DNA from: a virus | Taxonomy: Duplodnaviria > Caudoviricetes | Length of the DNA stretch: 54,420 bases | Virus record (IMG/VR): IMGVR_UViG_3300025671_000008 | Location: 1 to 54,420 of that record | Reading direction: 5' to 3' (one strand) | In this document: positions 535 to 53,311 of the stretch, one piece after another | Numbering within the stretch: the stretch's first letter is position 1 | Layout of the letters: every line of letters begins with the position of its first letter | Notes under the pieces: model-generated | What the model was told of the DNA's origin: nothing | Database searches by the model: none | What the model saw: the letters and a program-made list of their open reading frames with translations, nothing else | Position numbers and translations under genes: made by a program

Positions 535-1619
535 GAAATTGCTCCGAGATACTCATCCGGCATGCCCATCATGTATTGAGAGCCAGGCGTCATATCCAGC
601 TGGGCCATCTGGGAAAAGATCGCCGCAATAGAAACAGGACTGGACGGGTACTCCGCGATAGCCCTGAACGAGTTCTCCATGCCTGTGGCAAGGAACTGAT
701 TCGCCATGGCTTCAGCCCCTTGCTGCATGATCACACCCTGCTGGAACAGATTGGAAGCAGTTTGAGTTTGCTGGTTACGCAGAGATCCCGCCTGGTTGAT
801 GTTGCTGCCCGCCTGCATGCCCACCTGTCCGTAGTTCTGGGCACGCTGCATCTTCATCTGGGAACTCAATTCATTGAATCGGTTCGCCAAACCAGACATC
901 GTCTGTTGTGTCTGCTGTGCAGTTTCAAAGTCCATTTGAGCAAGAGCAGCCTGGGCCTGAGGGTCGCCCTTATCTGCGGCAATCTTCATCTGGTTTCTCT
1001 GCTGGCCCCTTTGCCGAGCAATTCCAAGAGCCTGAGCAGAAGCATCAGATGCCACAGACGACTCGAGATCATTCACAGCCTGCTCAAACAGGTTGTCGGA
1101 CTGCTCGAGAACGCCCTTGTTGAACTCAGTTTGGTCTGCCAGAAACTGATCGCCTGCATCCGAGATCGTTGCTGCCTGACCCGACAGCTGATCGAAGGCT
1201 CGATTTCCGCTTTCACGAATGTTCTGAGCCCCCCCCACATAGGCGTCCTGCATGTTCTGCAAACCCTCGTTCATTCGACCGGCTTGAATATTGCCGGCAC
1301 CTACGAGGTTCTGGTAGTCAGACAAGAGGGCCGCACCCATCTGGGCTCGGGCACCCTGAGCCGGAGTGGTCTCAAATGCCGACCGAGGCATGATGTCCCC
1401 GACAGATCGGAAGCCCGTGTTAGACGTGACTCCCGGTCTACGAAATTCACCGGGGTTCCCAGGAATGGGCATGAAACCCTGCTGGGCTGCTCGCTGCTCT
1501 GCCCCGGCTTGGTTCTGGAACATGTTGTAGAACTGGTCAAAGTGGCCACCGCCAAATCCCTGTCCGGGATTCATGCCTTGACCAAAGTTACCGAAGTTGT
1601 AGTTTCCAAACTGGCTCAT
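531..1619 (-). CDS. Gln/Gly/Ala-rich putative internal virion (ejection/pilot) protein
   Basis: 362 aa, helical low-complexity composition, follows the nozzle-like gene, start/stop coupled on both sides. Confidence 0.55.
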   Translation of the reverse strand: MSQFGNYNFGNFGQGMNPGQGFGGGHFDQFYNMFQNQAGAEQRAAQQGFMPIPGNPGEFRRPGVTSNTGFRSVGDIMPRSAFETTPAQGARAQMGAALLSDYQNLVGAGNIQAGRMNEGLQNMQDAYVGGAQNIRESGNRAFDQLSGQAATISDAGDQFLADQTEFNKGVLEQSDNLFEQAVNDLESSVASDASAQALGIARQRGQQRNQMKIAADKGDPQAQAALAQMDFETAQQTQQTMSGLANRFNELSSQMKMQRAQNYGQVGMQAGSNINQAGSLRNQQTQTASNLFQQGVIMQQGAEAMANQFLATGMENSFRAIAEYPSSPVSIAAIFSQMAQLDMTPGSQYMMGMPDEYLGAIS

Positions 1620-4429
1620 CAGGTTGGCCTCTCAGACATGTCAGTACTAGTGGCCCTGCCTCTGCAAATCACGGCCATCAGCTTAAAATCCAGGTCAGGA
1701 GCAAAGATCTCAATGCCGGGATTCAGCACTGAATCTTGGATACCGAACTTGCCGCCTACATTGGCGTCTGTCCCCTTGAAGGCGGCGTAATGATTGGACT
1801 CCCCGTTCTGAACAGAGTCTCCAATCTGGACCCCTGCAAAGTCAGAGGGAATTGCCTGAACCGATGCACTTGTAGCAGTGCTGTTCCAAGCCTCTCCCCG
1901 GAAGAACTTGTAGCCCGTGACCCCCCCACTCACGTCGGTGAAGTGGCACCCGATCGAAGAGATCTGCTTGTTGTTGAACATGTCGTATGACGTGATCGTC
2001 TTCCCGTCCTGTACCCGGACCATCGGGAGGGTGGCACCTACCCAGTGGACGTACATAGGAGACAGTCCCAGGATGGTTCCTGCGATCGCCGTCGTCGATG
2101 CTGACAACTTAGACACCAGATCAGAAGACCTGACGTACAGCTTCTTGAGGCTCGTGCCGGGGCTCGTCGCGTAGTAGATCTTGATCTTGGACCCGACTGA
2201 TTCAGGTGCCCCAGGTGACTCGAGGACGTAGGCATAGGCCCCCACCAGATCGACGCCATTGGTGCCAGCGTCAAGGTAATCAGGGGGCAGCGGAGATCCC
2301 CGGCTGGCATCAAGATTGATGATGGTCTGGCCTGAGGGAGAAGTACCCGCCAGCGAGAGACACTTGAAGTGGGTGTCGCCAGCAAAGTCCAGAGTCCGGA
2401 TCGTGGCAGAGTTGTTCGCAACCTGCGTCGGATTGGTCCCCGCGTTCTTAGATCGATCCACATCCAACAGGTACACCCGAGGCTTCCAGTTAGCCGGGAT
2501 ATCCGTAGCCGTGGTCGAAGGATGGTTCTGGAGGAAGAAGGCCCGCTCCACCATTGATGTATCAGCGGTAGGCACAGGATCCTTGACCGACCATGTCCGG
2601 GGCCAAACACCCTTCTTCACCTTGTCGAACGGCATGTCGTGGAATTCACTGACCCTGCCGACGTTGAACCAGAGACAGGCTACCTCTTCCGTGGCTGGGT
2701 TGAGGATGAACATGCAGGAGGCGTAGGGATCAAATTCCATCTGGAGTGATTCCAGGTTGGACTTCCAATCCTCCATCAGCAGGTTGTCGAGGAACTCCAC
2801 ATCGTCCAACTGCCCGTTGTTAGCGACAGCCTTCAGCCCCTTGGTCGTGACGAAGTAGGCCAATGGACCTGCTGTGGCTGCTGCATCCTGACCCGCCAAC
2901 CCGAAACCAGCGTGCATGTCCTCGATCTGGAGGAACAGGCCATTGCGGCGGATGTGGTAGATCCGATCCTTGCTGAACCCGACAGCAAACTCTCCGACTC
3001 TGACCAGCTTTTCAATCCGATTCTGGTAAATGTCGGGCGTGTACTTGTTGTTGATCGGGAACAGTTCAGGGCTACGCTCAGTCAGCGATGACCACCGGAG
3101 TTCACCCACATTCCGGATCCGGTCTTCCTGATTGCTCAGTACCTGAGTTCCGCCCTTGGGGTCAGCAACCAGCAATGCACCCTCAAACGGTACGGCACTC
3201 TTACCCTGAGGAACCTCAGCGTCATAAATGACTTTGTCCAGGTAGATGTCCTGCATGGCCAACGCCATGTCCGGCAGCTCGTACAGACACACGAATGACT
3301 TCATATTGACGGAAGCGTGGTCTATGTCATTGCTTTCGAGGAGACTATCAGTCCCACTCAGTTCATAGATGTTGTCCAAATGCAGGATGGATGCTGCGTA
3401 GATCCCCCCCACTTCCTGGGTACGCACGGATCGGAAGATGTAGATCTGGTCGTACTTATTGGTGTCCGCCCGGAAAAACAGCTTGGCGTACTTTGCTGCC
3501 GAACTCGTGAAATCTTCTTCTCGAACACCCTTTACTTCACTGAGTGCAGTACGGCGTCCTGACTTGGAATCATGCAGGTAGTACGCAAACGAGTAGTTAC
3601 CCGGCTCAAGTTTCTGATACTCACGATCTGGGAGGACGTTTAAAAAGAGCGGGTTGTCCGTTGAATCGTCTGTTCTGTCCACCTCATGCGTGGAGGCATT
3701 GGTGAGAACAATCTTGCCTTCACCAGACGAGACGGAAATTGATCCGGGATCTCTTGCGTCAATGGTAGATGAAGCATGGCCGGGATCATCCGGAGTCAGC
3801 AACGTAGGCTGAGAACCTGGACCACCCTCGACAATCTTGAGCTTCTTTGGGATGTTTAAATCTGGATCACCCGTGTCGATATACGCAAAGAGGGGCTTCT
3901 TCCCTCGCACAAAGACCCCGACGAACTGGCCCATGGACACGACATCCATAGACGACAGATCGACTTGAGCACCTGACGCAATACGGACAGTCCGCCATCC
4001 GCCAGCCTCACTCTGATCGTTAGACCCGTGGTAAGGGAAATCTGCAATATTCGTAGTCGGACAATAGTCCATGTAGATGGCGACATTGCCACCAGTGTGG
4101 TCCTTGATCCGGTACACAAATCCGTGAAGGAACTCACCTTCAGAGATGTGCATCTGGACCGGGAAGCAATCCGTCACTACAGATCGATTGGTGTGGTCTG
4201 TCCCCCCCACTCCACCATTAGCCTCGCTGGGGCTGAGGACCGCTGCGGTGGTATTCAGCTCGTGGGCCAGCTTCATCCCGCTCGAGGGACGGATGCCGAA
4301 TCGGAGTGAGCCATCAATGCCGGTCAGCTCGTGAGCCACCTGCTGCCCGGAGAGAGCAATACGCTCGATCCCCTTGTTCTGGGTTGTCTTGACCGTGGGA
4401 AATACCCACCGCTTGTTCTCGTTGCTCAT
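1619..4429 (-). CDS. Putative tail nozzle / tail tubular protein B-like
   Basis: ~936 aa (start MSNENKRW, ATGA overlap), beta-rich with an LRWS...PELFP segment; podovirus gene order. Confidence 0.55.
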   Translation of the reverse strand: MSNENKRWVFPTVKTTQNKGIERIALSGQQVAHELTGIDGSLRFGIRPSSGMKLAHELNTTAAVLSPSEANGGVGGTDHTNRSVVTDCFPVQMHISEGEFLHGFVYRIKDHTGGNVAIYMDYCPTTNIADFPYHGSNDQSEAGGWRTVRIASGAQVDLSSMDVVSMGQFVGVFVRGKKPLFAYIDTGDPDLNIPKKLKIVEGGPGSQPTLLTPDDPGHASSTIDARDPGSISVSSGEGKIVLTNASTHEVDRTDDSTDNPLFLNVLPDREYQKLEPGNYSFAYYLHDSKSGRRTALSEVKGVREEDFTSSAAKYAKLFFRADTNKYDQIYIFRSVRTQEVGGIYAASILHLDNIYELSGTDSLLESNDIDHASVNMKSFVCLYELPDMALAMQDIYLDKVIYDAEVPQGKSAVPFEGALLVADPKGGTQVLSNQEDRIRNVGELRWSSLTERSPELFPINNKYTPDIYQNRIEKLVRVGEFAVGFSKDRIYHIRRNGLFLQIEDMHAGFGLAGQDAAATAGPLAYFVTTKGLKAVANNGQLDDVEFLDNLLMEDWKSNLESLQMEFDPYASCMFILNPATEEVACLWFNVGRVSEFHDMPFDKVKKGVWPRTWSVKDPVPTADTSMVERAFFLQNHPSTTATDIPANWKPRVYLLDVDRSKNAGTNPTQVANNSATIRTLDFAGDTHFKCLSLAGTSPSGQTIINLDASRGSPLPPDYLDAGTNGVDLVGAYAYVLESPGAPESVGSKIKIYYATSPGTSLKKLYVRSSDLVSKLSASTTAIAGTILGLSPMYVHWVGATLPMVRVQDGKTITSYDMFNNKQISSIGCHFTDVSGGVTGYKFFRGEAWNSTATSASVQAIPSDFAGVQIGDSVQNGESNHYAAFKGTDANVGGKFGIQDSVLNPGIEIFAPDLDFKLMAVICRGRATSTDMSERPT

Positions 4430-4746
4430 TTTCTCTGGCCTTTGGATTCCTGCCACCGGCCCTCAGGACAGGCGACCTTGGGCATCTTCAGCTTGTTGGT
4501 CAGCCGGGCACCGTCGCCCCGGCCACAACCACACTTCCCACAGAATCCAATCTCGTCGGCCTTATCCTCCACCCGGAAGGGGCAGGACATGCACGAGTCC
4601 TTCCGCTCCTGGAAAACGTGGGGGGGAACATCACCCTCCAATACCTGGGACGCCTTGGCCCGGATGTAGGACGCCACGTTCTTGGGGGTGATCTTGGCCT
4701 TGGCAGCCAGCTCGTCTTCGTTGACTCGAGGGATCTTGTAAGACAT
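4426..4746 (-). CDS. Small Cys-rich metal-binding protein (CxxC...CxxCGC...CPxxxW, DUF6171-like)
   Basis: CMSCP...CGKCGC...KLKMPKVACPEGRW; coupled to neighbours. Confidence 0.6.
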   Translation of the reverse strand: MSYKIPRVNEDELAAKAKITPKNVASYIRAKASQVLEGDVPPHVFQERKDSCMSCPFRVEDKADEIGFCGKCGCGRGDGARLTNKLKMPKVACPEGRWQESKGQRK

Positions 4747-5819
4747 CAGGGTGCATCCGTAGTTACTTGAAAGTTGAGGCTGAATGGAAAACCTGATCCT
4801 GAAGTATCAATGCAAGAGCAACCCCAAGGCCCACATCCTCCGCTAGAGGCGTACCCAAGATCTAATGAAGTAGACATGGTGCCTGACCAAGTGAATGTGG
4901 AACAAGGAAAGCAATCATCAGGATCACTTAGATCTAGATTTCTGTTTTGCGAAACGTAAGAAGAAACCAAGCCATAGCCGCAGCTATGTTCTTCATTCGA
5001 CTCACCAGGCGGAAATCGATATCGATTTAACGTATTGTTTGCGTCGCCCAGATTCGCACTTTGAGTATTCGCACTCCCCGACACATTCACGTACAAGACC
5101 ATCCAATGAACACCGCCAGTGCAATTCAAATCATGGCAGCACCCTTGGTTAAATCCTCCGCAGTATCCTGGATCAGTAGGTGCAAGATCGCAACAGTCAG
5201 AAGCTTCTTGAACAACCGAATACTCAATCTTGGCAGCAAGTCGGAGTATTCCTTGATTCTGATAGATCGCACTAGAAGGATTGCTGCTCACCCCTGTATC
5301 AGGGTAAATCGTCACGTCACTAATGTTGAGTTTTGCGTTTGGGAACTTTGTTGAGTTAGGGCTAAACGAATATCCAGAAGAAGCAATCTTCAAGCATTTG
5401 AAGTCAGGCTCGTTCGCTTCGTACCCCCCCACGCAATCTCCAAACTTTTGATTGCAGTCAGGGTACGAAAGCTCGTCTTCACCACAGGTTGCACAATTGT
5501 TGTTCGATGCCTTTGTATAGAACTGGGCTTGAACAATCGTAGTTGCACCGTCATGACACACGGAATCAGGACCAAATCCAGCACAATCTGGAATTGGATC
5601 TTCAGGGCATCTCAATTGAAAACAGGAATTCAAAGACCCTGATGCTGCCGTTTGCCTGATGTAATCGTATTTAGACAAGCCATTGTTGGTGGCATCTTGA
5701 ATCAGCATGCGCTTGCAGCTAATGCTGGAGTTCATAGATCCACATGCAGGGAAAAGGTGGTAGTACGTTCCCCCGCAAGTGCGGCCTGTACAACAACAAG
5801 GTGCGGCGTAACCACTCAT
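4746..5819 (-). CDS. Cys-rich putative tail/receptor-binding protein
   Basis: 357 aa from MSGYAAPCCC, ~27 Cys, within tail module. Confidence 0.6.
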   Translation of the reverse strand: MSGYAAPCCCTGRTCGGTYYHLFPACGSMNSSISCKRMLIQDATNNGLSKYDYIRQTAASGSLNSCFQLRCPEDPIPDCAGFGPDSVCHDGATTIVQAQFYTKASNNNCATCGEDELSYPDCNQKFGDCVGGYEANEPDFKCLKIASSGYSFSPNSTKFPNAKLNISDVTIYPDTGVSSNPSSAIYQNQGILRLAAKIEYSVVQEASDCCDLAPTDPGYCGGFNQGCCHDLNCTGGVHWMVLYVNVSGSANTQSANLGDANNTLNRYRFPPGESNEEHSCGYGLVSSYVSQNRNLDLSDPDDCFPCSTFTWSGTMSTSLDLGYASSGGCGPWGCSCIDTSGSGFPFSLNFQVTTDAP

Positions 5820-6646
5820 GAGCAAGTCGTATTGAAGTTGGGCAAGGAAGCACCGAACCAGGTGTTGCCGGCAAAGGCAGAACCACCATCGAACTTGCGA
5901 CCCATGACAACTGTGTTGTCCTCGTATCTACGGATGGATTCCCCTGCTGGGACCCCCGGAAGGTCCCCTTCAAGAGCAGCAGTTGTGTTGTTCAAGGTGG
6001 GCCGGTTATCGACAAGCCAATCTGCTGAGCCAGTAGTAATAGTTCCGGAACGTGAAAATACGTGGTAGAAACTACCTGTCGAAATTACGTCGTACTTCTT
6101 GAGACTGCCAGAAGTCTCGAATGCCAGCTGCTCGCAAGCGTACTGAATGAGATACAAAGTACCTTGCCCACCAGAGACATCACGATCGTTCACAGTGTGC
6201 TGAGCGGTATATGACACCAAACGCAGCATGTCCATGCCGACTGAGCCGAGGCTCAAGTTGACCGCATCAGAAATGGCACCGCCAACCGACCCCGCACCAG
6301 AGCCGTAGTCGCCCCCGGTAGTACTCATGCTCACCGTGAATGTGGGGGGTGTGGCACCATTGGACGCCACCTGAATAGGCAGCGTGCCCTGCACCTGAGT
6401 GGAGCCGGACACTGTCGAGGGGGAGATGAAGAAGTTACCGCCCGGAGCAGAGAGATTGAACTCTGGCCCCGTGTTGACGTTGGCGATATTCCCCCCCACA
6501 TTGTTGTTCCACGCACCGATGCTGCCCTGGTTGAACCGGGGCTGCCACTCCACCTCCCGCAACCAGCCAGGTGACACCCGCTTCTGACCAAGGCCAGATA
6601 GAACGTCTTCGTTGAAGGTGTTTACCTGGAGAGGGCTACCCTTCAT
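5816..6646 (-). CDS. Putative tail protein (Gly/Ser/Thr-rich)
   Basis: Likely start MKGSPLQV at 6646; composition and position. Confidence 0.55.
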   Translation of the reverse strand: MKGSPLQVNTFNEDVLSGLGQKRVSPGWLREVEWQPRFNQGSIGAWNNNVGGNIANVNTGPEFNLSAPGGNFFISPSTVSGSTQVQGTLPIQVASNGATPPTFTVSMSTTGGDYGSGAGSVGGAISDAVNLSLGSVGMDMLRLVSYTAQHTVNDRDVSGGQGTLYLIQYACEQLAFETSGSLKKYDVISTGSFYHVFSRSGTITTGSADWLVDNRPTLNNTTAALEGDLPGVPAGESIRRYEDNTVVMGRKFDGGSAFAGNTWFGASLPNFNTTCS

Positions 6647-6854
6647 TGCGGATTGGCTCCACAAAGAGAGGACTTCTATCGCCCATGTACGCTCCCTCAA
6701 TGTTGTAGGAGCAGTACTCTCGAGCTTCTTCGAAGTCCATGCCGTCGTCTTCCATCAGACCTTCCCAAATCTTGAGAAGCGAGTAGACGGCCTTGTCCCC
6801 GATAGTGCCCAAGAGAGCATCTTCACACCCCGGAATTGTCAGAATGTCATCCAT
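6636..6854 (-). CDS. Small acidic phage protein
   Basis: Pattern G.EDA.LG...VY...LM.DGM..EEA.EY..YNI.GA..G...P resembles a widespread phage hypothetical family. Confidence 0.7.
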   Translation of the reverse strand: MDDILTIPGCEDALLGTIGDKAVYSLLKIWEGLMEDDGMDFEEAREYCSYNIEGAYMGDRSPLFVEPIRNEG

Positions 6855-6985
6855 TACTTGTTTATCTTCTCCTTGATCTCTTGAAGGTCACGACGAATTC
6901 CTTTGACCATGGTGTAGTACACAAGTACCCACACGATCAGAGGGGTGAGATTGTTCTCGAGGATGGGAATGATCGATGGTTCCAT
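6854..6985 (-). CDS. 43 aa single-TM protein (holin-like?)
   Basis: Read by eye: MEPSIIPILENNLTPLIVWVLVYYTMVKGIRRDLQEIKEKINK; start and stop overlap the neighbours. Confidence 0.6.
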   Translation of the reverse strand: MEPSIIPILENNLTPLIVWVLVYYTMVKGIRRDLQEIKEKINK

Positions 6986-7608
6986 CAGTCAACTCCAGGT
7001 TCGTATGTGTCTGACCACTGCCCGAACAAGATGCCAAGATCCTTGCCGTCTACGATCCCATCGAAGTTGAGGTCCGATCGGTTCTGGTCACTTCCGAAGT
7101 CCGCCAGCAGCAGACCCTGATCCTGAGCGTTCACCACGCCATCAGCGTTGATGTCTGCAATCTGATCGGCACGGCGAATCGTGCATACCCAATTGATTGC
7201 TTCAGTCACAGTGTTGTTGGCTCCGACAGTAAAGACATAATCGGAAACAATCCGCTGCTTGCCAGCGTCCCAGCACAATGGAGAACCCTGCTCGAAGATG
7301 GGAACGAAGCCGTCGTCGATCCTCGTCGACATCCGGTACTTCACGTTCTTCTCACTGCCGCTGAGGTTCTGGACCTGGGCAGTACCTGCGACTGTGAACC
7401 ATCCCACCTCAGTTACAGCAGGGCGGACATAGGTCACCATCAAGGCTCGTGTTTCAGTGCTGGCCTGCGAGTTGACTTCGATTGCACTCGTGACCTCGCC
7501 ATCCGAATCAACAAACGGAAGGCGAGTAGTAGTCATCGGAAGCATTCGAGGACTGCACGGCTCGGCGTCTTGAAACGCGACGGTAGTTGCGAGGAGTAGT
7601 TCGATCAT
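6985..7608 (-). CDS. Exported protein with C-terminal dockerin-like (twin Ca-binding loop) domain
   Basis: Hydrophobic N-terminus MIELLLATTVAFQD; C-terminus ADINADGVVNAQDQGLLLADFG...SDLNFDGIVDGKDLGILFGQW. Confidence 0.8.
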   Translation of the reverse strand: MIELLLATTVAFQDAEPCSPRMLPMTTTRLPFVDSDGEVTSAIEVNSQASTETRALMVTYVRPAVTEVGWFTVAGTAQVQNLSGSEKNVKYRMSTRIDDGFVPIFEQGSPLCWDAGKQRIVSDYVFTVGANNTVTEAINWVCTIRRADQIADINADGVVNAQDQGLLLADFGSDQNRSDLNFDGIVDGKDLGILFGQWSDTYEPGVD

Positions 7609-10800: not shown

Positions 10801-10903
10801 GCGACCACACCAGGTCTGCACCGGCGTACACCTTGGCGACTGAATCGGTGCCAACCTTGAGACTGGCGATCGCAGATGATGCTGCCTTAAAGTCTGCCAT
10901 CAA
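7832..10903 (-). CDS. Tail fibre/receptor-binding protein with LamG/ConA-like lectin domain
   Basis: WFDASD...WADKSGN...[13 protein letters not shown]...[11 protein letters not shown]; N-terminal LKVG...KVYAG..LVW adaptor; internal domain duplication. Confidence 0.8.
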
Positions 10904-40835: not shown

Positions 40836-40860
40836 GAAAAGCGTTCGATCAAACGCTCCA

Positions 40861-40920
40861 GGCCCGCCCCCGCTTCGCGTAGGGCGGGCCTTTCGCGTCC
40901 ATGCTCTCCCTTGGTATAGT
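40861..40920 (+). promoter_or_regulatory. Hairpin plus extended -10-like element
   Basis: GGCCCGCCC...GGGCGGGCC then TTT; TGGTATAGT at 40912. Confidence 0.45.
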
Positions 40921-40962
40921 GTATTCATTCCCCCCCCACCTTCTTTCCCACCGGAGTCCTGC

Positions 40963-42454: not shown

Positions 42455-42583
42455 ACTCTGACTGTTTCATCCTGGACTGCTGCACCGCTGTGGACTCCAC
42501 GACTCCCCTCACCCTTGAGGAGGTCGCCCTTCAGTACGGCGTGTCTCGGGATACGGTTTTAATCACAGCAATGGAACAAGAAG

Positions 42584-42934
42584 ATGAATGAGATCAATAA
42601 GGAAATCGCGTTCCAAGTGATCCTTCCGAAGCTCCAACTGATTTGCAGCAAGGAAGAGATCAAGAGCGTGCCCGAGCTTCGCAAGAAGTTTAACTCCACC
42701 TACGAAGAGTCGATCTCCGCTGCGAAGTTCCAGGAGTGGATCGATCTCCTCGAAGTGAAGTTCACAAAGAAGGTCGTGATCGAATGGCCCGCAGGGGCCC
42801 GGCCCGCCGGGCAGCCCCCAGCGGTCCCTCAGGATGACGACTTGGAAGAGCAGCAGGATGAACTTGCTGATGACTTCCCCCCCACTCCAGCCTCAGCAAT
42901 GCGTATGGACGCATTCAACCAGATGTCGCAATGA
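42584..42934 (+). CDS. Hypothetical protein
   Basis: 116 aa coupled ORF. Confidence 0.65.
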   Translation: MNEINKEIAFQVILPKLQLICSKEEIKSVPELRKKFNSTYEESISAAKFQEWIDLLEVKFTKKVVIEWPAGARPAGQPPAVPQDDDLEEQQDELADDFPPTPASAMRMDAFNQMSQ

Positions 42935-43834: not shown

Positions 43835-44368
43835 ATGAGTATCAACAACGCCGCCCTCTCTGCTTTCAACTCCGAGATGAAGACTCTCTCTGCCGATACC
43901 GACGGCGGGTACAACTCGTGGTTCCCCGATGAGGGCATGTACGACTGCACCATCAACGGGATCTACCTTGGCGAATGCACCGCCAAGGAGTGGATCGACA
44001 ACGAGCCGAAGGAACACGACGGCATCCTCGTGAAGTTCAACTACACGCTTCTGGATGATCCCGGTTCGCCTGACAACCCTCGATCTTTTGATGGTTCTCC
44101 CTTCATCCTCCCGGCTGGTGGAGCATCTGCCTACTCCTCGGAGAAGGCACAGAAGCAGCTCGAGCGCACGCTCAAGCGTCTCAAGGGCCACCTCTGCGTG
44201 ATGCTCGACATGAGCGATATCCCTGACGTTTCCGCTGCTGTTTCAGAAGTCGAGAGCAGGCTTCAGACCGAGTCGATTCTCGCCAAGGTCAAGTGCAGCT
44301 CCTACACCAATCCGACCTCGGGCAAGACGTACCACACCGAATACGTGAATTCTCTGCTCGGTGTTTGA
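43835..44368 (+). CDS. ssb: Putative ssDNA-binding protein (DUF669-like)
   Basis: FPDEGMYDCTI motif; follows Sak4-like gene. Confidence 0.65.
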   Translation: MSINNAALSAFNSEMKTLSADTDGGYNSWFPDEGMYDCTINGIYLGECTAKEWIDNEPKEHDGILVKFNYTLLDDPGSPDNPRSFDGSPFILPAGGASAYSSEKAQKQLERTLKRLKGHLCVMLDMSDIPDVSAAVSEVESRLQTESILAKVKCSSYTNPTSGKTYHTEYVNSLLGV

Positions 44369-44422
44369 GGTTCATCATGGGAAGGTTGAATCCTTACCTT
44401 AGAGACTTTCCCCCCCACTTCC

Positions 44423-44509
44423 GTGCTTGGGGTTGCCTATCACGCACCCCAAGCACTTCATCTCTTTCTCCTCCTCCGCGCTACCTCCTTCTTCACGAGG
44501 GAGGTAGTG
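44423..44509 (+). promoter_or_regulatory. Two intergenic hairpins
   Basis: GTGCTTGGGGT...ACCCCAAGCAC; GCTACCTCCT...GGGAGGTAGT, which would sequester the next RBS. Confidence 0.5.
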
Positions 44510-44513
44510 TTTA

Positions 44514-45044
44514 ATGGCTATCAGCATTCCCACATGGGCCAACCTTGGCCCTGTAAAAATTGCTGAAGGGCCAGGCCAACCCGTTCGCGTTCGTATCTCG
44601 ACGGGCCTTGGACGAATTCCAACGCCTGCGATTGATGAACTCGAGATCTCGCCAAACAAAGGATTCACCTCCCTTATGGGATTCCTCTGTTTGGTTCGAG
44701 AGCCACACCTCGGTGGGACTAGGTGGTGGCTCTGCGGCTCATGGATGCTGTTTCAATCAACCGCTGATTGGGATACCCACGAGCTGCTCTTAAGGGAGTC
44801 GGAGCCTACCGAGTGTGACTTTCAGGGGTTGTCGGAGCCCCTCAAATTATCCACTCGGTGGGCCGACTCCTGTTTTAAGTTCCTGGACTTTCGAGTTCAG
44901 CACCCCCACATGAAAGAACTCATTGAACACATGGGCGACCCCCACGGTGAAGGATCTCAATTCTTTAATCGCCTTCTTCCAGGTCGTCTCCCATGTGCGT
45001 TGCGTTGCACCCCCCAACACTGGCAAGTTTGGATACAGCTATGA
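44514..45044 (+). CDS. Hypothetical protein
   Basis: GGAGG RBS, 176 aa. Confidence 0.6.
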   Translation: MAISIPTWANLGPVKIAEGPGQPVRVRISTGLGRIPTPAIDELEISPNKGFTSLMGFLCLVREPHLGGTRWWLCGSWMLFQSTADWDTHELLLRESEPTECDFQGLSEPLKLSTRWADSCFKFLDFRVQHPHMKELIEHMGDPHGEGSQFFNRLLPGRLPCALRCTPQHWQVWIQL

Positions 45045-45353: not shown

Positions 45354-45728
45354 ATGCAACTCTCAGCACTCTCTCACTACCCATTGGTAAAGCATCTCGA
45401 AGATAACCTCATGCAGGATCTTCGAAAGAGCGATCCCTACTCGTACCGAATCATTCAGTATCTGCTGACGTATCACCGTTTGGGCAGCGACTACATGATG
45501 TACGACCTTCAATCGAAAACTTCAGAGCTTGTGTCCGATCTGCTTGAAGACAGCAACGACTACCTGCAAAAGAACGCTGACCTCATCGAGCAAGTCGCTG
45601 ATCTCGAGACAGATAAGTCCTGCATGGAGCAGGAAATGAATTGCTTGAAGGAAGCACTGGAAGAGAACAAGCAGGTCGTTCTCAAGGAACGACAGAACTT
45701 TCCCACCCTTACGGAGGATCTCTGCTGA
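45354..45728 (+). CDS. Coiled-coil hypothetical protein
   Basis: AAGGA RBS, MQLSALS. Confidence 0.6.
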   Translation: MQLSALSHYPLVKHLEDNLMQDLRKSDPYSYRIIQYLLTYHRLGSDYMMYDLQSKTSELVSDLLEDSNDYLQKNADLIEQVADLETDKSCMEQEMNCLKEALEENKQVVLKERQNFPTLTEDLC

Positions 45729-46735
45729 TGGCACACGGAATCACTGAAACCGACGGGCTCGTACTTCACAAGACACGAGCATGGCACGGCCTCGGCACTG
45801 TTGTCGAAGACGCCCCCACCCCGGCCCAAGCCCTGGAACTCGCAGGACTCAACTGGAAGGTGGGCTTCACCAACGGAGTGGGGGGGACAACAGAAGATGT
45901 TCCCGTCCACACCAGAGACTGGAAGCTGGTCGTTCGTGAGGACAACAACGAAGTTCTTGGTTGCGTCAGCAAGAACTACTCGGCCATTCAGAATGAGATG
46001 CTGTCCGACTTCGCGTCTGCTCTGGCAGCAGAAGACGACATCGTCAAGGTCGAGAGTGCCGGCAGTCTCTTCGGAGGCCGTCGTATCTTCTACCTGCTGA
46101 AGAGCGAGTCGTTCAACATGGCCGATGATCGAGATGAAGTTGTCCCGTACATCCTGTTGTCGAACAGTCATGATGGCTCCTTGTCGTTCTCTGCCCGACC
46201 CACCTCCATCCGTGTGGTGTGCAACAACACTCTCACCTGGGCTCTCGAGAGTGGAGGCAAGAACATCTTCCGTCTCAAGCACACCAAGAACCTACTGGCC
46301 AATGTGGATCAGGCCCGCAAGGCACTCAAGCTTTACAGCAAGGGTGTGCCTGTGTTCCAGAATCAGTGCCGGCAACTCAACGCCAAGCCTCTTCGCGGTG
46401 AAGATACAAATCGCTACTTCAAGCAGATGTGGCAAGTGCTGAACGGTCCCGTCGACAAGCGTGGGTTCACGAAGGATGAAATCACCACTCGCGAAGTCAT
46501 CAGGAATGATTGGGCACGCAACAAGTGTGGCCTTCTTACATACCACTGTGATCGCGATCGACTTGCCCCTACTGTTTGGACCGGATTCAATGCCATCACT
46601 GAAGACGAGCAAGAGTCGTACAGCACCTCGCCAGACCGTAACCTCAGTTCCAAGCTCTTCGGAGCAGGGGAAGACAAGACCAACAAGCTCTGGAACGCGA
46701 CGCTCAAAATCGCAGACCAGTTCGCGACAGCTTGA
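45728..46735 (+). CDS. DUF932/DUF945-like protein
   Basis: AWHGLG...ALELAGLNW...LGCVSKNY..IQN...SNSHDGS...IRVVCNNTL. Confidence 0.85.
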   Translation: MAHGITETDGLVLHKTRAWHGLGTVVEDAPTPAQALELAGLNWKVGFTNGVGGTTEDVPVHTRDWKLVVREDNNEVLGCVSKNYSAIQNEMLSDFASALAAEDDIVKVESAGSLFGGRRIFYLLKSESFNMADDRDEVVPYILLSNSHDGSLSFSARPTSIRVVCNNTLTWALESGGKNIFRLKHTKNLLANVDQARKALKLYSKGVPVFQNQCRQLNAKPLRGEDTNRYFKQMWQVLNGPVDKRGFTKDEITTREVIRNDWARNKCGLLTYHCDRDRLAPTVWTGFNAITEDEQESYSTSPDRNLSSKLFGAGEDKTNKLWNATLKIADQFATA

Positions 46736-47350: not shown

Positions 47351-50300
47351 TTAAAACCCTTCTGTCGCACTGTAGTTGTCGAAGACAGATGGGGTTGCTC
47401 TAGACTTCTCAGCGGTAGATCGATCGAGTTCGCCAGGCATAGTTCCACCGGCACGCTCCAATATCGGTCGGTACTGCTGCCTTATCTGAGGGTTGAGTCG
47501 TTCATACATTCGCTCGCGAAGTGGGACTTCTCGAACTTGGATAGCTCGGTCGATCTGCTGTTGAGTTACGGTCAGAGGCATTCCAAACTTTCGTTCGAAG
47601 TTCTGAGCCACAGCATTCGCCCGCTGAGTGTTGTTGTTCAAGAGAGCATTGATGTAATCAGCTTTGATTCCATTGAACTGCTCACGGTTGCTGACCATGA
47701 ACTTGTGCAGTTCCTGGTTCTGCTTGTTCATGTACGGCCCAAGACCCACAGAAGACAGGATTCGTTTGACGGCAGGTTCGTACTGAATGACCGTTCCGTC
47801 TGCTCGATAGGTGGGGACATCACCGTTCTCATTCATCTGATTAAAATCAGTGAACTCTCGTTGCAGTCCTCCAATGATCCCCTTCTGGTCCCCCATCTGA
47901 GGAGCCAGATTCAAGGCTCGCTGGAGGGCAATGCCACCAGGCAGCACCCGAGGCACCACAGCACCAATCAAGGACTGATCCTCCGCCAGCAGGGCCTGAG
48001 TCCCATCCATGGCCAAATCGATGATGGGGGGGATAGGCATCTTGTAGCCCAAGCTCGCCCGGTCAGAGGTGAACATCGGGCCAACAATCGTTGACTCCCA
48101 CATGGTCTGGGCTCCGAGGCCCTTGCTGAAGTCCATCCCGAGAGCATTCTTCCCGATCTCGTAGATGGCAGCACTGAACCCCAGAGTCCGAGCCATGTCG
48201 TGAAACATGGAGGAGTATTTACCCTGCGTCTCAAAGCCCGTCAGGCCCCATGTACGGCGTCCCTGATTGATCATGGGCGCCGTGTCCGTCCAGGACGTGA
48301 GCGTCCTCAGAGGGAACGTGAGGAACTGTCGGGCCCAAGGGAGAGACAAGAACCCCTGCTGGAACATGGCAGGGCTATTGACAATGTCAGAGCCAAACTG
48401 GGTGTTCTGAACCATGGACTTGATCGAGTCCGTGGAGCGGAAGATATCGTCCTTCTTGCCCTGCATGGCGTAATCAGTCAAACCGTTCTTGACGGTCTTC
48501 CTCATCCCCCCCACTTTCCCTGCTGCCTGAGTGGCCGCAAAGGCTGCCTCTCCAGTAGCCACCCGGTTGAAGATCTCGGTGTGCTGGAACAGCTTGAGCG
48601 GCAATTCCGTCAGGGCATATTTCAGAGGTCTGGGGTTCTTGTCGGCGATTGTCGAAAAGGCCACCTGGTCAAGCAGCTCGTAGGAGCTGGCCCGGATGTT
48701 GAGCAGATCCTCTCCGTCCACATTGGACAGGCGGAAATGCTTGCGGCGAAGCTCGTCGATGTCGTCGGCGTTGCCCCGGATGCCCAGCTTGATCCTGTCG
48801 TCGATGTAACTGAAGTACTGCTTGAATGCCTGGCCGTACCCCTTGGCCATGTTGCCGGCACCCATCCAGGTCTGGGCAAAGAGCAATGGCTGAAACAAAT
48901 TCAAGACTGCCGAAGCAGGGTTGAATCCCAGGTGAGAGGAGTAAAGAGCGGTAGCAGCACCACGACCAAACTCACTTCCATCAAACTCGGTCAAGTCTCT
49001 CTTGGCAAACGACTTCAAAGAGCCGAGGAACTGACTGCTCTGTGAGTTCTCCCCCCCCACTTTAGCCATGAACTTGCTGTTGGCCAGGCCGCCTGCAATG
49101 TGCTGGGCACCCAGCATCGCGTGGTAGCCCATGAGATCATTGATCTTCATCTCACCACGGATACGAGGAATCAGTACCCCTTGAATGTAACTGCTGGTTG
49201 CCTTGTCCCCAGCAAGATCCAAGTCTCGTACCAATGTCTGGTACACGTCGTACCTCGAGTTGCCCCCCAACATCTTTCGAGCAGCCACTTCTCGCCGAGC
49301 ATCTCGAGCTTTCTGTACAGGGAAGTCCCGAAGGGCCAGACGCACATCACCGGGGAGAGCGTCGGCATAGAACGCCACATCATTTCGGGTCTGCTTGAGG
49401 TACTTGTTAATGGAGTAATCAAAGTCGAGGTTGGATACCTGGACAATGCCATCTTCAGGACTGCGTCGGAATGCTTCTTGAAGCAGCTTTCGATTCTGCC
49501 CCACGAAGTTCTCGAGATTGGAGTTCGCTACACCTGCCTTGGCATAAAGCTCACCAATGATCTCGAGATCTTCCGGGTCATAGATGCCGTCCGAGACACT
49601 TCGATTACGGATCCGGCCCGAAGCAAAGTTGACCTTGCGACGGGAGTCTTGGACTCGATCTACCCTGACCTTGTCGCCATTCTCAAGGACATTCGACCAG
49701 ACATTGCGAGGCATGTAGTTGTCAAGGTCATCCAGAGATCGCTGATCCCGAACCAATTGCTTGAACTCAGAAATATCCAGAGATCCGTTACGCAATTTCT
49801 TGACGACCTCTTCAGCAATCTCGTTGTTCATGTGGCCGAAGTATTCAGATGCCAGGAATGGAACATCCTCAGCCCTTGCCACCTGCACACTCTTCTTGAG
49901 ACTGCCGTACAACCTCAGGATCTTGTCGTCATCAAACCCCCCTGACCTGTTCAAGAACAAGTCACCGTAACGCTTCTTCATGACTGCTCGAGTCATGCCC
50001 ATGTACGGAGCAAACCCCTCCTGCTCAAGCCACTTGGACATAAGATCGTCAGGGTCTAGGTTAGGTCGGACTCGTTGCTCAATCTCGTTCGTGATTCGAT
50101 CTGCTCGAGACACTCGGACAGGCACATCATCGCCCACGATAGGACGGACCTGATTCAAGAACTCTGCTTCTGGAATCTTGCCCTCGTCCAAATCACGCAG
50201 AGCAGCATTCACCGCACCTGCTTGCTCTCGGTTGACAGGCAACTTCTTCCCTGACTCCGTGACCACGTTGTGGGCCATGCCCATGTTGGCCTGCTTGCGG

Positions 50301-50977
50301 ACCACCTGCTTGTTCATCCCGTCCAACACGGCGTGCATGTAGACCTGGGATCTCTTGAGATAGGTAGGCAACGAAATGTACTCGCCGTTGATGTTGGCAA
50401 ATACTTCCGGTGCCCGCTCAGGACGAAGACTTTGGAGAGGCGTCTTCAACCTAAATCGTTCAGAGATACGTGATTGAAGAGAGGCCAGAGTAGAGCGGAT
50501 AGGGATCTGCTCTTCTTCTACCAGGTCACTGATCCTCTTGGTGGTGGAGTTCAACACCGTAGGCAGTGCAGTACCCTGCCCCATTTGATGGGCATTAAGC
50601 AGGCCAAGGCTCTTGAGAACAGACTTGTTCCCAATGACATACTCACCGTATTTCGAGCCCGTGAAGATACGACCTGTAGCCGACAAAGCCTTACCCGCTG
50701 CTGGCGACGTGACAAACGTCAGCCAGACAAACGGGTTTGACGCAAGGTCGATGACCGTGTTTGCCAATGCAGAACCACCGTACTCCTGCTTCAATCGTTC
50801 GACAAAGGAATCCCTCTCCCTTGGGCTCAAAGCAGAGGGATCAAGCATTGTCTGCTTGAACGATTTCCAGGTCAGTTCATCATCGAGGAACTGAGTGAAA
50901 GCGACAGTGGGCCTGTCATAGATGGCAACAGGATCAAAGCCGTCTAGGCCGTCTTCCTGCGGATCGTAATCCATCAA
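47351..50977 (-). CDS. Large internal virion / DNA ejection protein
   Basis: 1208 aa, LGFNPASAVLNLFQ motif, hydrophobic C-terminal helices, last late gene. Confidence 0.6.
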   Translation of the reverse strand: MMDYDPQEDGLDGFDPVAIYDRPTVAFTQFLDDELTWKSFKQTMLDPSALSPRERDSFVERLKQEYGGSALANTVIDLASNPFVWLTFVTSPAAGKALSATGRIFTGSKYGEYVIGNKSVLKSLGLLNAHQMGQGTALPTVLNSTTKRISDLVEEEQIPIRSTLASLQSRISERFRLKTPLQSLRPERAPEVFANINGEYISLPTYLKRSQVYMHAVLDGMNKQVVRKQANMGMAHNVVTESGKKLPVNREQAGAVNAALRDLDEGKIPEAEFLNQVRPIVGDDVPVRVSRADRITNEIEQRVRPNLDPDDLMSKWLEQEGFAPYMGMTRAVMKKRYGDLFLNRSGGFDDDKILRLYGSLKKSVQVARAEDVPFLASEYFGHMNNEIAEEVVKKLRNGSLDISEFKQLVRDQRSLDDLDNYMPRNVWSNVLENGDKVRVDRVQDSRRKVNFASGRIRNRSVSDGIYDPEDLEIIGELYAKAGVANSNLENFVGQNRKLLQEAFRRSPEDGIVQVSNLDFDYSINKYLKQTRNDVAFYADALPGDVRLALRDFPVQKARDARREVAARKMLGGNSRYDVYQTLVRDLDLAGDKATSSYIQGVLIPRIRGEMKINDLMGYHAMLGAQHIAGGLANSKFMAKVGGENSQSSQFLGSLKSFAKRDLTEFDGSEFGRGAATALYSSHLGFNPASAVLNLFQPLLFAQTWMGAGNMAKGYGQAFKQYFSYIDDRIKLGIRGNADDIDELRRKHFRLSNVDGEDLLNIRASSYELLDQVAFSTIADKNPRPLKYALTELPLKLFQHTEIFNRVATGEAAFAATQAAGKVGGMRKTVKNGLTDYAMQGKKDDIFRSTDSIKSMVQNTQFGSDIVNSPAMFQQGFLSLPWARQFLTFPLRTLTSWTDTAPMINQGRRTWGLTGFETQGKYSSMFHDMARTLGFSAAIYEIGKNALGMDFSKGLGAQTMWESTIVGPMFTSDRASLGYKMPIPPIIDLAMDGTQALLAEDQSLIGAVVPRVLPGGIALQRALNLAPQMGDQKGIIGGLQREFTDFNQMNENGDVPTYRADGTVIQYEPAVKRILSSVGLGPYMNKQNQELHKFMVSNREQFNGIKADYINALLNNNTQRANAVAQNFERKFGMPLTVTQQQIDRAIQVREVPLRERMYERLNPQIRQQYRPILERAGGTMPGELDRSTAEKSRATPSVFDNYSATEGF

Positions 50978-51781: not shown

Positions 51782-52998
51782 TAAATCCCCTGCCGAGCCA
51801 TCAGTTCGGCATATCCAGGTCTGTTGTTAGATGCGATCCGCTGGAGTTCTTGTTCACGACCTTGGATCAACTGCTGCAACTCACTCGAAAGACGATCTCG
51901 ATTTGCACCAGCATTCAGATTCGATGGACGAGCCATATCTGCTACTGCACCAAAGTGACCCGTGCTGTCTCGAGATAAAGCCTTCTGTTGAATACCCGCT
52001 TGAAGAGCCAGCATCATTTCTCGATTCTTGTTGGCGTCTTCCTTAGCTCGCCTTGAGCCCCGTGTAGCCAAGTCATACGCCATGAGCCCGTAACCAATCG
52101 GACCCAGCATTCGGAGTAGTGTCCCCCCCATTCCCATAGGGGCAGCCGCCTTTGCAGCCTTAGCCGCTTTAGATGCCTTGCCTGCTTTTGACGCACCCTT
52201 TTTTGCAGGATCCTTTTTGTCTGCTTGCCTTCGAAGCAACTCAGCTTCTTTAGCCTTAGCTTCATCCTGTTGCTTCTTAAGTGCCTCCGCTCTTACCTCA
52301 GCCTTCGTCGGAACACGACCTGTTGCTAGACCAGGAGAAAGAAACAGGCTTGCCTTTGACACAAGGCGTGTCGCAGGATTTTTAGACTTAGCGTCTCTAC
52401 GATACTTCTTGTTCCGTTCTCTTGCTGCTTTCTGTTCAGGGTCAGGTTCATTTGCTGCTCTTTCAGCAGCATCCGCTTTCTCTTGCTCATTTATGCGTCG
52501 GACTTCCTCCGACCTAACGTCCCTCTCAGCATCAGGAATTTCACCTGCTTCCCTGCGAACCGCATCTCCTGCTTGTTCACTTGTCAATTCGACATCAAGA
52601 TCTGACGGGCCTTCGGTGCCACGAGACTGAGTGCCCCGAGCAAGAGATCTACCACTGCGTTCGGATCTTTCTTGAAGGCTTTCGGTAAACTTTGTCCTTC
52701 TACCTACATCATTGATTCGATCGCGGAACTCACGGTTAGTAACTGGCCGTGCAGATACGACCTCAACGTCGGTATCTGAATCAGGATTAAATGCCTTTGA
52801 AATCTTGCTGGCACCCTTAGTGTCCTGCTGCTCTTGATAAACGTCCTTGAGGTGGTTTTCAAGACCTTCCGCATCCTTTGAGTTACGGAAGTCGTCAAAG
52901 GTATCACGATCAACAAAGATCGATGTCTTCAAATCTCCGACTTGCAGATCTACTTCAACAAGCTCTTCCTGGTCAAGCAGTTCTTCAAAGGTTGCCAT
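51778..52998 (-). CDS. Charged putative internal virion protein
   Basis: 406 aa, KAA repeats then hydrophobic MLGPIGYGLMAYD. Confidence 0.55.
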   Translation of the reverse strand: MATFEELLDQEELVEVDLQVGDLKTSIFVDRDTFDDFRNSKDAEGLENHLKDVYQEQQDTKGASKISKAFNPDSDTDVEVVSARPVTNREFRDRINDVGRRTKFTESLQERSERSGRSLARGTQSRGTEGPSDLDVELTSEQAGDAVRREAGEIPDAERDVRSEEVRRINEQEKADAAERAANEPDPEQKAARERNKKYRRDAKSKNPATRLVSKASLFLSPGLATGRVPTKAEVRAEALKKQQDEAKAKEAELLRRQADKKDPAKKGASKAGKASKAAKAAKAAAPMGMGGTLLRMLGPIGYGLMAYDLATRGSRRAKEDANKNREMMLALQAGIQQKALSRDSTGHFGAVADMARPSNLNAGANRDRLSSELQQLIQGREQELQRIASNNRPGYAELMARQGIY

Positions 52999-53311
52999 GG
53001 GCCTCTTCCAATCTTTCAGCAGCTTCTTGATGCGTCAACGCACCCAATCGAATAGTGGTTTCTTCCCCCCCACGTTCCACTTGCAGTACCGCCCGGTCAC
53101 GAGTCACGGCCCGATCCTTACGGTTGTCCCACAAGAACCGACGCACAGCACGAGCAGAGAACTCAGTGGGGGGGACAGAAGCAGACAGCCCAGGCAACGG
53201 CACCACCACCGCACCGTCCGGGGCTGAGTCAAAGTCAAAGCCGGGATCACTCAGCAACACGCTGTCGTGGTCCATTGCCTTGGCTGAAATTTGCTTCCAA
53301 TCACGAGTCAT
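52985..53311 (-). CDS. Hypothetical protein
   Basis: 108 aa, GAGGAG RBS. Confidence 0.6.
   Translation of the reverse strand: MTRDWKQISAKAMDHDSVLLSDPGFDFDSAPDGAVVVPLPGLSASVPPTEFSARAVRRFLWDNRKDRAVTRDRAVLQVERGGEETTIRLGALTHQEAAERLEEAHGNL

Follow-up and report, generated by a model that had tools for sequence, protein, structure and literature searches.

Results

A dispersed 9-mer in a two-armed phage genome

The element considered here is a short DNA word, CCCCCCCAC on one strand and GTGGGGGGG (the G-form) on the other, which recurs throughout IMG/VR virus record IMGVR_UViG_3300025671_000008, a virus of the Caudoviricetes. We refer to the whole 54,420-base record as the window; it is the entire virus genome on a single contig, and its ends are arbitrary, because a contig from other sequencing runs reaches beyond the window's first base. 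The late arm occupies the - strand from 25399 to 1 and, in addition, from 54420 to 47351, with products that include TerL (PHROG 38, E=3e-44), a virion protein, a collagen-repeat tail protein, and an SU10-adaptor-like protein. The early genes lie on the + strand from 25337 to about 47100 and encode an SF3 helicase (of the primase-helicase families), UDG, a family A polymerase, an ERCC4 nuclease, a metallophosphatase, a PD-(D/E)XK exonuclease, a Sak4-like annealing protein, and a DUF932 protein; domain scans covered 50 open reading frames (ORFs) with Pfam and 30 with PHROGs. The phage was found in freshwater metagenome runs (24 listed, from 16 studies), and no RNA dataset is among the listed runs that contain it.

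Counting both strands, the window holds 32 copies of the 9-mer, with CCCCCCCAC reading on + in 25 cases and on - in 7, precisely at the positions and on the strands given in a preliminary description of the sequence. Dinucleotide shuffles yielded a mean of 0.50 copies and a maximum of 4, and none of 100 reached 32. The word is the genome's most over-represented 9-mer, at about 60-fold above chance (the preliminary estimate had been 30-40 fold) and roughly 1 copy per 1.7 kb. The copies, together with four variants carrying a shorter run (GT-G6), are listed below; the strand is that on which CCCCCCCAC reads, the G-form GTGGGGGGG being on the opposite strand, and metagenome-assembled genomes are abbreviated MAG. 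Gene calls are crude: 31 of the 32 copies fall inside ORFs, three of which are doubtful (26795-26956, 34009-34212, 40849-41076).

1230 to 1238, +: copy in ORF 531-1619 (-), read as VGG; C run of 8
1921 to 1929, +: copy in ORF 1619-4456 (-), read as SGG; G002 and MAG contig C18 also have the motif here
3404 to 3412, +: copy in ORF 1619-4456 (-), read as VGG; G003 and MAG C18 have the G6 form here
4202 to 4210, +: copy in ORF 1619-4456 (-), read as VGG; other residues there in relatives
4618 to 4626, -: minority copy in ORF 4426-4746 (-), read as PPH
5424 to 5432, +: copy in ORF 4746-5825 (-), read as VGG
6491 to 6499, +: copy in ORF 5816-6700 (-), read as VGG
11776 to 11784, +: copy in the collagen-repeat tail protein ORF 10900-11829 (-), read as VGG
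11885 to 11893, +: copy in ORF 11829-12182 (-), read as SGG
14181 to 14189, +: copy in the helix-turn-helix (HTH)/sigma-region-4-like ORF 13660-14349 (-), read as SGG; kept in L001 and L002
17443 to 17451, +: copy in ORF 16654-17535 (-), read as VGG; G7 in 4 close relatives, GTG GGG GGA in 8 of 10 other aligned relatives (L005 and L009 without it)
20490 to 20498, +: copy in TerL (19743-21680, -), read as GVGGK; distant relatives have GLDGN, DKSGE, DKEGN, DQSGN
22755 to 22763, +: copy in ORF 22372-24285 (-), read as RGG; kept in L001-L004
25823 to 25831, +: copy in the SF3 helicase/primase-family gene 25337-26731 (+), read as PPH; distant relatives have CP with a gap
26922 to 26930, -: minority copy, only in a doubtful 53-aa ORF
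32966 to 32974, +: copy in the integrase-like ORF 32619-33581 (-), read as CGG
33121 to 33129, -: minority copy in the integrase-like ORF 32619-33581 (-), read as PPT
33659 to 33667, +: copy, intergenic, 19 nt past a tRNA-Ser half; the sole clearly intergenic copy
34028 to 34036, +: copy in the small, doubtful ORF 34009-34212 (+), read as TPP
34945 to 34953, -: minority copy in the UDG gene 34534-35241 (+), read as VGG
37013 to 37021, +: copy in the family A DNA polymerase 35495-37864 (+), read as PPH
38247 to 38255, +: copy in the ERCC4-domain nuclease 38158-38682 (+), read as PPT
40227 to 40235, +: copy in ORF 40083-40598 (+), read as PPH; inverted pair with 40248
40248 to 40256, -: minority copy in ORF 40083-40598 (+), read as VGG; G002 and MAG C72 have the G6 form at these codons
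40931 to 40939, +: copy, C run of 8, only in a doubtful ORF
42877 to 42885, +: copy in ORF 42584-42934 (+), read as PPT
44410 to 44418, +: copy in ORF 44293-44514 (+), read as PPH
45878 to 45886, -: minority copy in the DUF932 gene 45641-46735 (+), read as VGG
48506 to 48514, +: copy in the 1208-aa ORF 47351-50977 (-), read as VGG; relatives have RLSGL or similar
49052 to 49060, +: copy in the 1208-aa ORF 47351-50977 (-), read as VGG; C run of 8; relatives have KIESM or similar
53065 to 53073, +: copy in ORF 52985-53311 (-), read as RGG
53166 to 53174, -: minority copy in ORF 52985-53311 (-), read as PPT
6342 to 6349, -: GT-G6 variant (GTGGGGGG on +), minority orientation
12674 to 12681, -: GT-G6 variant, minority orientation, SPHY; kept in L001 and L002
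15036 to 15043, -: GT-G6 variant, minority orientation
19339 to 19346, -: GT-G6 variant in the 663-aa ORF 17536-19527 (-), read as SPHY; TCC CCC CAC, synonymous positions included, in 13 of 16 relatives

As the preliminary description had remarked, most copies lie in genes as VGG, SGG, PPT, or PPH, and the run is nearly always exactly 7 (29 of 32 copies; it is 8 in the three beginning at 1229, 40930, and 49051). Among C runs of at least 7 on the + strand, A comes next in 28 of 29 and AC in 25 of 29. The full motif is [A/T]GT-G7-A, and a sequence logo gives A or T ahead of GT and A after the run (24 of 32), with nothing beyond. Neighbors at one mismatch are not enriched (24 vs 16 expected). The seven such sites singled out earlier are where they had been placed: those at 6342, 12674, and 19339 are GT-G6, and those at 20329, 37811, 52123, and 48024 are C7/G7 runs with another flank. 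The 8-mer core (GTGGGGGG) occurs 36 times in the window, 11 of them in the minority orientation, and both orientations are far above chance. Of the intergenic copies reported earlier, one, the attP-arm copy at 33659, is clearly so under our gene calls.

The G runs are real and not an assembly artifact, because independent assemblies reproduce them identically: contigs from 4 other freshwater runs show 0 differences and 0 gaps over pieces spanning the 13 copies between 1 and 20000, and the only indel listed among the other-run contigs is one of 3 bases at 14475, with no homopolymer indels. The window's 11 minority sites are evenly spaced (coefficient of variation 0.41, P=0.002), as are the majority sites of the complete relative G002 (P=0.02); four other such tests were not significant, and even spacing is a hint only. 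None of the contig ends of 111 related viral contigs lies within 50 nt of a motif, against 3.4% expected, in what is a weak test. A full-text literature search with the letters of the motif gave no relevant paper, only unrelated ones on eukaryotes.

The word is selected as DNA

Codon-preserving shuffles within genes, a check that the preliminary description had put forward, gave a mean of 4.40 copies over 1000 rounds (standard deviation 1.56, maximum 10), against 32 observed. The encoded proteins show the same excess. Read as GTG GGG GGG, GTGGGGGGG encodes 13 of the 18 VGG tripeptides, which are three-fold more numerous than expected (18 vs 5.8), and PPH is six-fold in excess (6 vs 0.9); the motif is read in several frames, as VGG, S/R/C-GG, PPH, and xPPT. 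In relatives, synonymous positions retain the word: the GTG GGG GG of ORF 16654-17535 is kept in 12 of 14 aligned sequences, and TCC CCC CAC at the 19339 site in 13 of 16. Other sites were made by residue replacement, GLDGN having become GVGGK in TerL and KIESM having become KVGGE elsewhere. Of 21 alignable window sites, only 3 coincide with a motif in G002, a genome with 26 copies of its own, and copy number is held at 26-36 per genome while positions turn over. A stable number with shifting places is the behavior of a density signal.

Because the excess survives codon shuffling, the word is kept at synonymous sites and created by replacements, and its number is maintained despite turnover, these results support the earlier proposal of a DNA-level signal under selection, as opposed to a codon or protein effect. 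That there is no signal at all, and that the copies reflect chance, codon or amino-acid usage, or assembly error, is extremely improbable: GGG and CCC codons are indeed not rare here, but none of 100 dinucleotide and none of 1000 codon shuffles came near 32, independent assemblies are identical, and the trait is present across the clade, as described below.

With respect to orientation, the counts of CCCCCCCAC on + versus - are 15:2 in the late arm and 10:5 in the early arm, as first reported. Expressed as sense:antisense, the G-form stands at 15:2 in the late arm and 3:7 in the + strand early genes (Fisher P=0.004). The strand bias is thus a property of the DNA and not of the message, because the sense/antisense preference flips between the arms, and the preliminary view that it is not only codon-driven holds. 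RNA-level readings (Shine-Dalgarno-like pausing, frameshift sites) were rejected in view of this flip and of the use of several frames. G002 shows the same pattern (19:7), its G-form lying on the sense strand of the late genes in either arm; the orientation count in G003 is 9:16. The + strand is C-rich throughout (C/G 1.09), and composition alone predicts 2.05:1. The word is therefore polarized by strand, as the preliminary description stated, in a degree no greater than GC skew predicts (P=0.13).

GC skew is itself negative along the whole + strand, monotonic and without a switch, and the early-arm sense strand is C-rich at third positions (G3/C3 0.80). So unbroken a skew suggests one-directional replication or some other genome-wide strand asymmetry.

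Related phages spell the word in dialects

TerL relatives at 68-93% identity were found on fifteen viral contigs and one MAG contig, and a profile search widened the set to 80 viral loci, down to 49% TerL identity; with the MAG contig locus L016 and the window, 82 sequences were compared. A search of genome contigs with PolA found no relatives, and an annotated phage collection gave no match to 25 kb of the DNA or to the TerL protein. Among the 82 sequences, 75 carry one G-rich 9-11-mer dialect at a density of at least 0.25 per kb, the dialects being named G7, AGTGGGGGGA, CAGTGGGGGT, GGCTGGTGGGG, and CCTGGAGGGGG; the seven without one are short, have few copies, or sit on very long branches. 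Close relatives (85-93%) have the G7 form in common, and leftover G6 forms occur only in the minority orientation. The next group, in which G002 has 26 copies of the 8-mer core, spells AGTGGGGGGA, and more distant groups spell CAGTGGGGGT, CCAGTGGGGGG, GGCTGGTGGGG, and ACCTGGAGGGGGT. Dialect GGCTGGTGGGG contains the E. coli Chi octamer. In MAG G001, which co-bins a G6-type relative, three phage contigs hold 32 of 52 matches and the motif is confined to them; this MAG has no tRNA-Ser match and says little about the host.

Placed on a TerL tree (quick maximum likelihood, midpoint root only), the dialect labels require 10 changes, compared with 44 when labels are shuffled. Sequences of the GGCTGGTGGGG group form a single clade, the G7 form lies nested within G6, and G6 itself had at least two origins inside the G5 group. 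The trait is clade-wide, and the dialects follow the phage phylogeny. No protein could be tied to the dialects, every gene differing between clades.

A tRNA half ties the phage to Phycisphaerales

Next to the intergenic copy lies a feature that bears on the host:

33600 to 33640, +: 5' 41 nt of tRNA-Ser(GCT), attP-like, beside the integrase-like ORF 32619-33581 (-)

The ORF has an integrase match (PHROG 1, E=9e-4). The exact 41-mer occurs in 65 stretches of species-representative genomes, nearly all of them MAGs of Phycisphaerales, Phycisphaerae, and other Planctomycetota. In all 58 of the 58 host loci inspected, the match runs no further than nt 41, and ARAGORN called tRNA-Ser(gct) in 4 of 4 host loci tried. 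The tRNA-Ser half ties the phage to Phycisphaerales as its likely hosts. No related prophage lies beside the tRNA in loci L157-L221, and the 41-mer is absent from viral contigs. Among the papers listed in a literature search on isolated Planctomycetes podoviruses, none was useful.

Open frames of 972-1326 aa with PDDEXK_1 domains are present in 5 of 5 tRNA-matching genomes, two of them adjacent in G153, and RecC was found in 0 of 5. Judged from domain and size only, AddAB-like genes appear to be present in Phycisphaerales hosts.

In the attP-like region itself, CCACCTGT (within 33649-33658) is complementary to ACAGGTGG at tRNA positions 3-10, so the half-tRNA can close into a long hairpin; the motif copy at 33659 follows directly.

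The word family is strand-skewed in three planctomycete genomes

We examined three host genomes in depth (G156, G141, and G148), chosen after totals or lists had been seen and with the leading strand inferred from G-richness. In G156 (GC 0.46; 400 kb), the most strand-skewed 7-mers are CCCCCAC (38:7), CCCCCCA (27:3), and CCCCACT (29:4), all sub-words of the motif. The 8-mer GTGGGGGG stands at 19:0, with 3.7 expected per strand and a G-rich 8-mer background of 1.9:1 (P=3e-4); 12 of these sites are sense, 5 antisense, and 2 intergenic. GT precedes 19 of 47 G runs of at least 6 on one strand and 0 of 11 on the other, so that GT-G6+ is found 19 times in 19 on one strand, at 1 per 21 kb over the 400 kb; the skew of GT-G5+ is below 0.9 in G141 and G148. 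Across the G156 genome, 48 of 65 adjacent sites share orientation (P=5e-5). On the G156 leading strand, the observed-to-expected ratio (O/E) reaches 5 with the 8-mer and 2.3 with the 7-mer. Two further words were counted in G156, GGGGGCAG at 12:0 and GGGNAGGG, unskewed, at 11:8; the latter stands at 2:0 in the window and is not enriched there.

In G141 (GC 0.66, GC skew 0.002) the top skewed 7-mer is GGTGGGG (39:8), and GTGGGGG stands at 31:8. G148 (GC 0.52, near the phage's) has the highest total of 30 genomes, 1 per 8 kb; on its contigs with at least 5 copies, GT-G6+ tracks the G-rich strand on 3 of 4 (21:5, 12:4, 0:5) and is 7:6 on the fourth. Leading-strand skew beyond GC skew is thus present in G156 and G141 and mixed in G148, these three genomes being the sample. 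The preliminary description had suggested looking for the 9-mer and its skew in Planctomycetota; the outcome was partly positive, with words of this family among the most skewed in these three genomes and with totals near control in most of the genomes counted.

Separately, in the Planctomycetota MAG G141 (C4:1-340000, L310-L326) the word GGGCAGGG, of the type of the E. coli FtsK-orienting polar sequences (KOPS), stands at 22:3 on one strand with almost no GC skew, and is a candidate FtsK-orienting word for Planctomycetota. Since it is so skewed, the FtsK role may already be filled there.

One Phycisphaerae MAG, G007, has 2,317 copies of GTGGGGGG, about 1 per 2.2 kb (contigs C1-C9, L142-L156). 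It was found with close motif pairs as bait, a search whose listed matches were mostly high-GC noise. Its copies form clusters of G5-G11 runs, such as GGGGGAAC GTGGGGG AAC GTGGGGGGGGGG, which are mostly intergenic and one-stranded per contig (C9 25:8, C5 23:9, C2 8:0, C3 1:10). We set G007 aside as host evidence given its variable-length runs, a coverage of 1.76-fold in the contig title, and no tRNA-Ser match within 3 mismatches; the clusters are either a real G-rich intergenic element or an artifact of that coverage.

Other features of the phage genome

The recombination genes of the phage are as follows:

41156 to 43833, +: PD-(D/E)XK exonuclease (41156-42454) and Sak4-like annealing protein (42931-43833), from Pfam/PHROG matches

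The helicase at 25337-26731 aligns with phage primase-helicase families over their C-terminal half only. Neither a primase catalytic domain nor a methyltransferase nor a nuclease-inhibitor family was found in the ORFs scanned (50 with Pfam, 30 with PHROGs), and PDB sequence searches with three ORFs of unassigned function gave no match. Just 5' of TerL (21649-22375, -), two ORFs share about 260 nt, read in different frames, and each is conserved in relatives (81% and 95% in L001); the explanation is either a later start for the second ORF or a frameshift in the small-terminase region. The last approximately 50 residues of the 207-aa ORF 6985-7608 (-) match translated DNA in five 8-kb tRNA-Ser host loci (L162, L175, L185, L188, and L214; 39-50% identity).

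Independent metagenome assemblies break or differ at 7000-7600, 11350-11700, and 14300-15500, with many single-nucleotide polymorphisms and the deletion of 3 bases at 14475; all three count as strain-variable parts of the tail/head gene area. In the collagen-repeat gene, assembly joints skip 65-300 bases. The largest nearly motif-free stretch, 26700-32600 (26922 being its only copy), is also the lowest in GC (0.50-0.51) and contains small ORFs of unassigned function, mostly without G002 homologues; it may have been acquired recently.

Discussion

Our first choice, held tentatively, is that the motif is a Chi-like signal for a host AddAB-type nuclease, amplified by the phage some 5-25-fold. A host AddAB-type helicase-nuclease, degrading inward from a free double-strand end, would read the short word in single-stranded form, and the word would switch it from degradation to recombination. 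By saturating its genome with the spelling of its host lineage, at about 1 per 1.7 kb, the phage would ensure that exposed ends (injected DNA, concatemer tails, terminase cuts) come upon a copy in the right orientation within one or two kilobases. Most copies would face one way since ends would mostly be exposed from one direction, and as a phage lineage moved among hosts, the spelling would follow, giving rise to dialects. We infer that the reader is AddAB, that degradation is attenuated by the word, and that such exposure of ends accounts for the polarity. If packaging runs from terminase to portal and the last DNA in is the first out, the majority orientation would protect the first-ejected end, an agreement that luck would produce half the time.

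Several parallels speak for such a signal. Chi (E. coli GCTGGTGG for RecBCD; short AddAB/RexAB words in Firmicutes) is likewise G-rich, asymmetric, dispersed in coding sequence, and strand-biased. Its spelling differs between lineages, and the likely hosts here appear to have AddAB-like genes. The phage motif differs in its length of 10-11 nt and its exact run, and in that the word is skewed but mostly not over-represented in the hosts. To our knowledge, no Chi or KOPS word has been described for Planctomycetota. Lambdoid phages with a recombinase but without a RecBCD inhibitor over-represent Chi, at an O/E of 2-5 and a density near the host's, with the copies concentrated between the origin and cos (Bobay, Touchon, Rocha 2013). 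By gene content our phage fits this inhibitor-less class, with a Sak4-like protein and an exonuclease and with no inhibitor family in Pfam scans of 50 ORFs. It departs from the lambdoid case in that its copies extend genome-wide.

Other observations weigh against a Chi-like signal. The O/E of about 60 in the phage far exceeds the 2-5 given for lambdoid Chi. With the reversed word as a control, totals of GTGGGGGG are close to the control value in 120 of 121 Phycisphaerae; the same applies to 80 of 81 genomes of a single order and to most of the 30 genomes with a tRNA match. GCTGGTGGGG is sparse in hosts too. Host genomes have 0.02-0.13 copies per kb, and the phage has 0.6 per kb (about 5-25-fold more). 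Known AddAB Chi sites are 5-7 nt long, against the 10-11 nt of the phage motif, which is also stricter (exact run, flanking A's) than the G156 sites (G6 or G7, any next base). None of the three genomes read in depth is shown to host this phage, and all were chosen post hoc. G runs generally lean the same way (non-GT G runs of at least 6 stand at 28:11 in G156, and G7 at 31:7 in G148), so only part of the strand signal is motif-specific, and the 25:7 polarity of the phage is not significantly above the GC-skew prediction (P=0.13). Chi and KOPS are the two established kinds of functional polar words in bacteria; published KOPS have skews of 0.79-0.91 and densities of 1 per 13-22 kb, and the skew and low density of G156 fit those figures at least as well as they fit Chi.

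The closest structural precedent comes from phages with localized single-strand interruptions, such as tf, phiKMV, and T5, and the motif could mark sites for a site-specific nickase encoded by the phage, with co-evolution of enzyme and site giving rise to the dialects; we hold this to be a doubtful but serious contender. Phage tf is a podovirus with two transcription arms and 14 copies of the 9-mer TACTRTGMC, all nicked, and its relatives have 8-9 copies of a variant, TACTATGAC, for which its authors propose nickase-site co-evolution. The supposition that our motif is of a kind without precedent falls with this example. Here, too, an exact asymmetric 9-11-mer is about 50-fold enriched, the strand bias is independent of the transcription arms, and dialects track the phylogeny; ERCC4 and PD-(D/E)XK nucleases are encoded by the phage, and enrichment in the host is not needed. 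However, tf, its relatives, and the phiKMV-like phages have all sites on one strand and the nicks themselves are demonstrated, whereas 22% of the copies here (7 of 32, or 11 of 36 for the 8-mer core) lie on the opposite strand, far above chance. The presence of the same word family, polar, at the top of the likely hosts' strand-skew lists would have to be a coincidence. No contig ends were near the motif (a weak test), and there is no known function that would select 30 nicks and create sites by amino-acid change.

A phage-encoded reader that does not nick is unlikely in our estimation. It would make the word either a self-mark that stops the phage's own PD-(D/E)XK exonuclease or an HTH binding array serving replication, packaging, or genome organization. 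Hosts have few copies of the word and the phage has many, the word has an exact length with A flanks, and the dialects follow the phage tree; candidate readers would be the 432-aa PD-(D/E)XK protein, the double-HTH protein (37767-38168), the HTH protein (13660-14349), and the SF3 helicase. Such a reader leaves the host-side polarity of the same words unexplained, and no protein could be tied to the dialects. A particular form, to which we give still less credence, is a Chi-like self-marking of the clade's own, in which a phage nuclease or motor, the PD-(D/E)XK exonuclease being the obvious candidate, is halted by the 10-11-nt word. Host and competitor phage DNA without the right dialect would then be degraded and the phage's own genome spared, the dialects would diversify through competition between related phages, and the host-side polarity would be a separate matter.

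We judge it about as unlikely as a phage-encoded reader that the motif is a KOPS-like signal by which FtsK or another polar translocase of the host moves or orients the phage, for example into daughter cells or in dimer resolution. KOPS and the SpoIIIE recognition sequences resemble the motif as G-rich 8-mers with extreme leading-strand skew whose spellings co-evolve with their reader; the published thresholds are a skew of at least 0.9 and at least 1 site per 40 kb, values that GT-G6+ reaches in 400 kb of G156, where the canonical GGGNAGGG is unskewed (11:8). Against this, G141 already has the separate word GGGCAGGG skewed (22:3) besides GGTGGGG, and the window is not enriched for GGGNAGGG (2:0). 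In the G148 contig C39, the tRNA sense strand is the strand with most G-forms; a phage integrated there through its tRNA half would, on this one contig, have most of its copies facing the non-permissive way. Amplification of KOPS in phages is not known to us, and, with no literature search made on this point, we know of no benefit or precedent for a phage raising such a word some 5-25-fold above its density in the host.

That the word marks where lagging-strand priming starts on the G-form strand is a very improbable reading. A spacing of about 2 kb, one strand favored throughout, a monotonic GC skew, an SF3 helicase of the primase-helicase families, and somewhat even spacing in two of six tests are in keeping with it. 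However, no primase catalytic domain was found (the helicase represents the C-terminal half of primase PHROGs only, with no Pfam match elsewhere), known primases read 3-nt sites, and the sole template pyrimidine is the T of GTG.

DNA uptake sequences (USS/DUS) are a further comparison: these are 9-12-mers within genes, in several frames, shaping peptides and having lineage dialects, dense in the bacterial genome, where they number hundreds to thousands, and not strand-polar. The likely hosts here, in contrast, are not dense in the word, and the word is strand-polar.

The ranking therefore places a Chi-like signal first among the mechanisms offered at the outset; packaging or ejection gained nothing, the phage nickase has the best structural precedent and needs no host enrichment, and a KOPS-like role is without a reason for amplification. 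A phage genome saturated with a strand-biased word is of an already known kind, as lambdoid Chi and the nick motifs illustrate. What is new is how large the effect is, the set of dialects found among about 80 related phages, the changes in proteins that let them carry the word, and the connection with polar words of Planctomycetota.

If the word is indeed Chi-like, the phage clade would naturally amplify, and so bring to light, the recombination signal of a host group that is uncultured, and its dialects would allow phages to be paired with host lineages from sequence. If the sites instead prove to be nick sites or a phage-encoded self-mark, the clade would provide some 80 naturally occurring variants whose reader and sites have changed in step.

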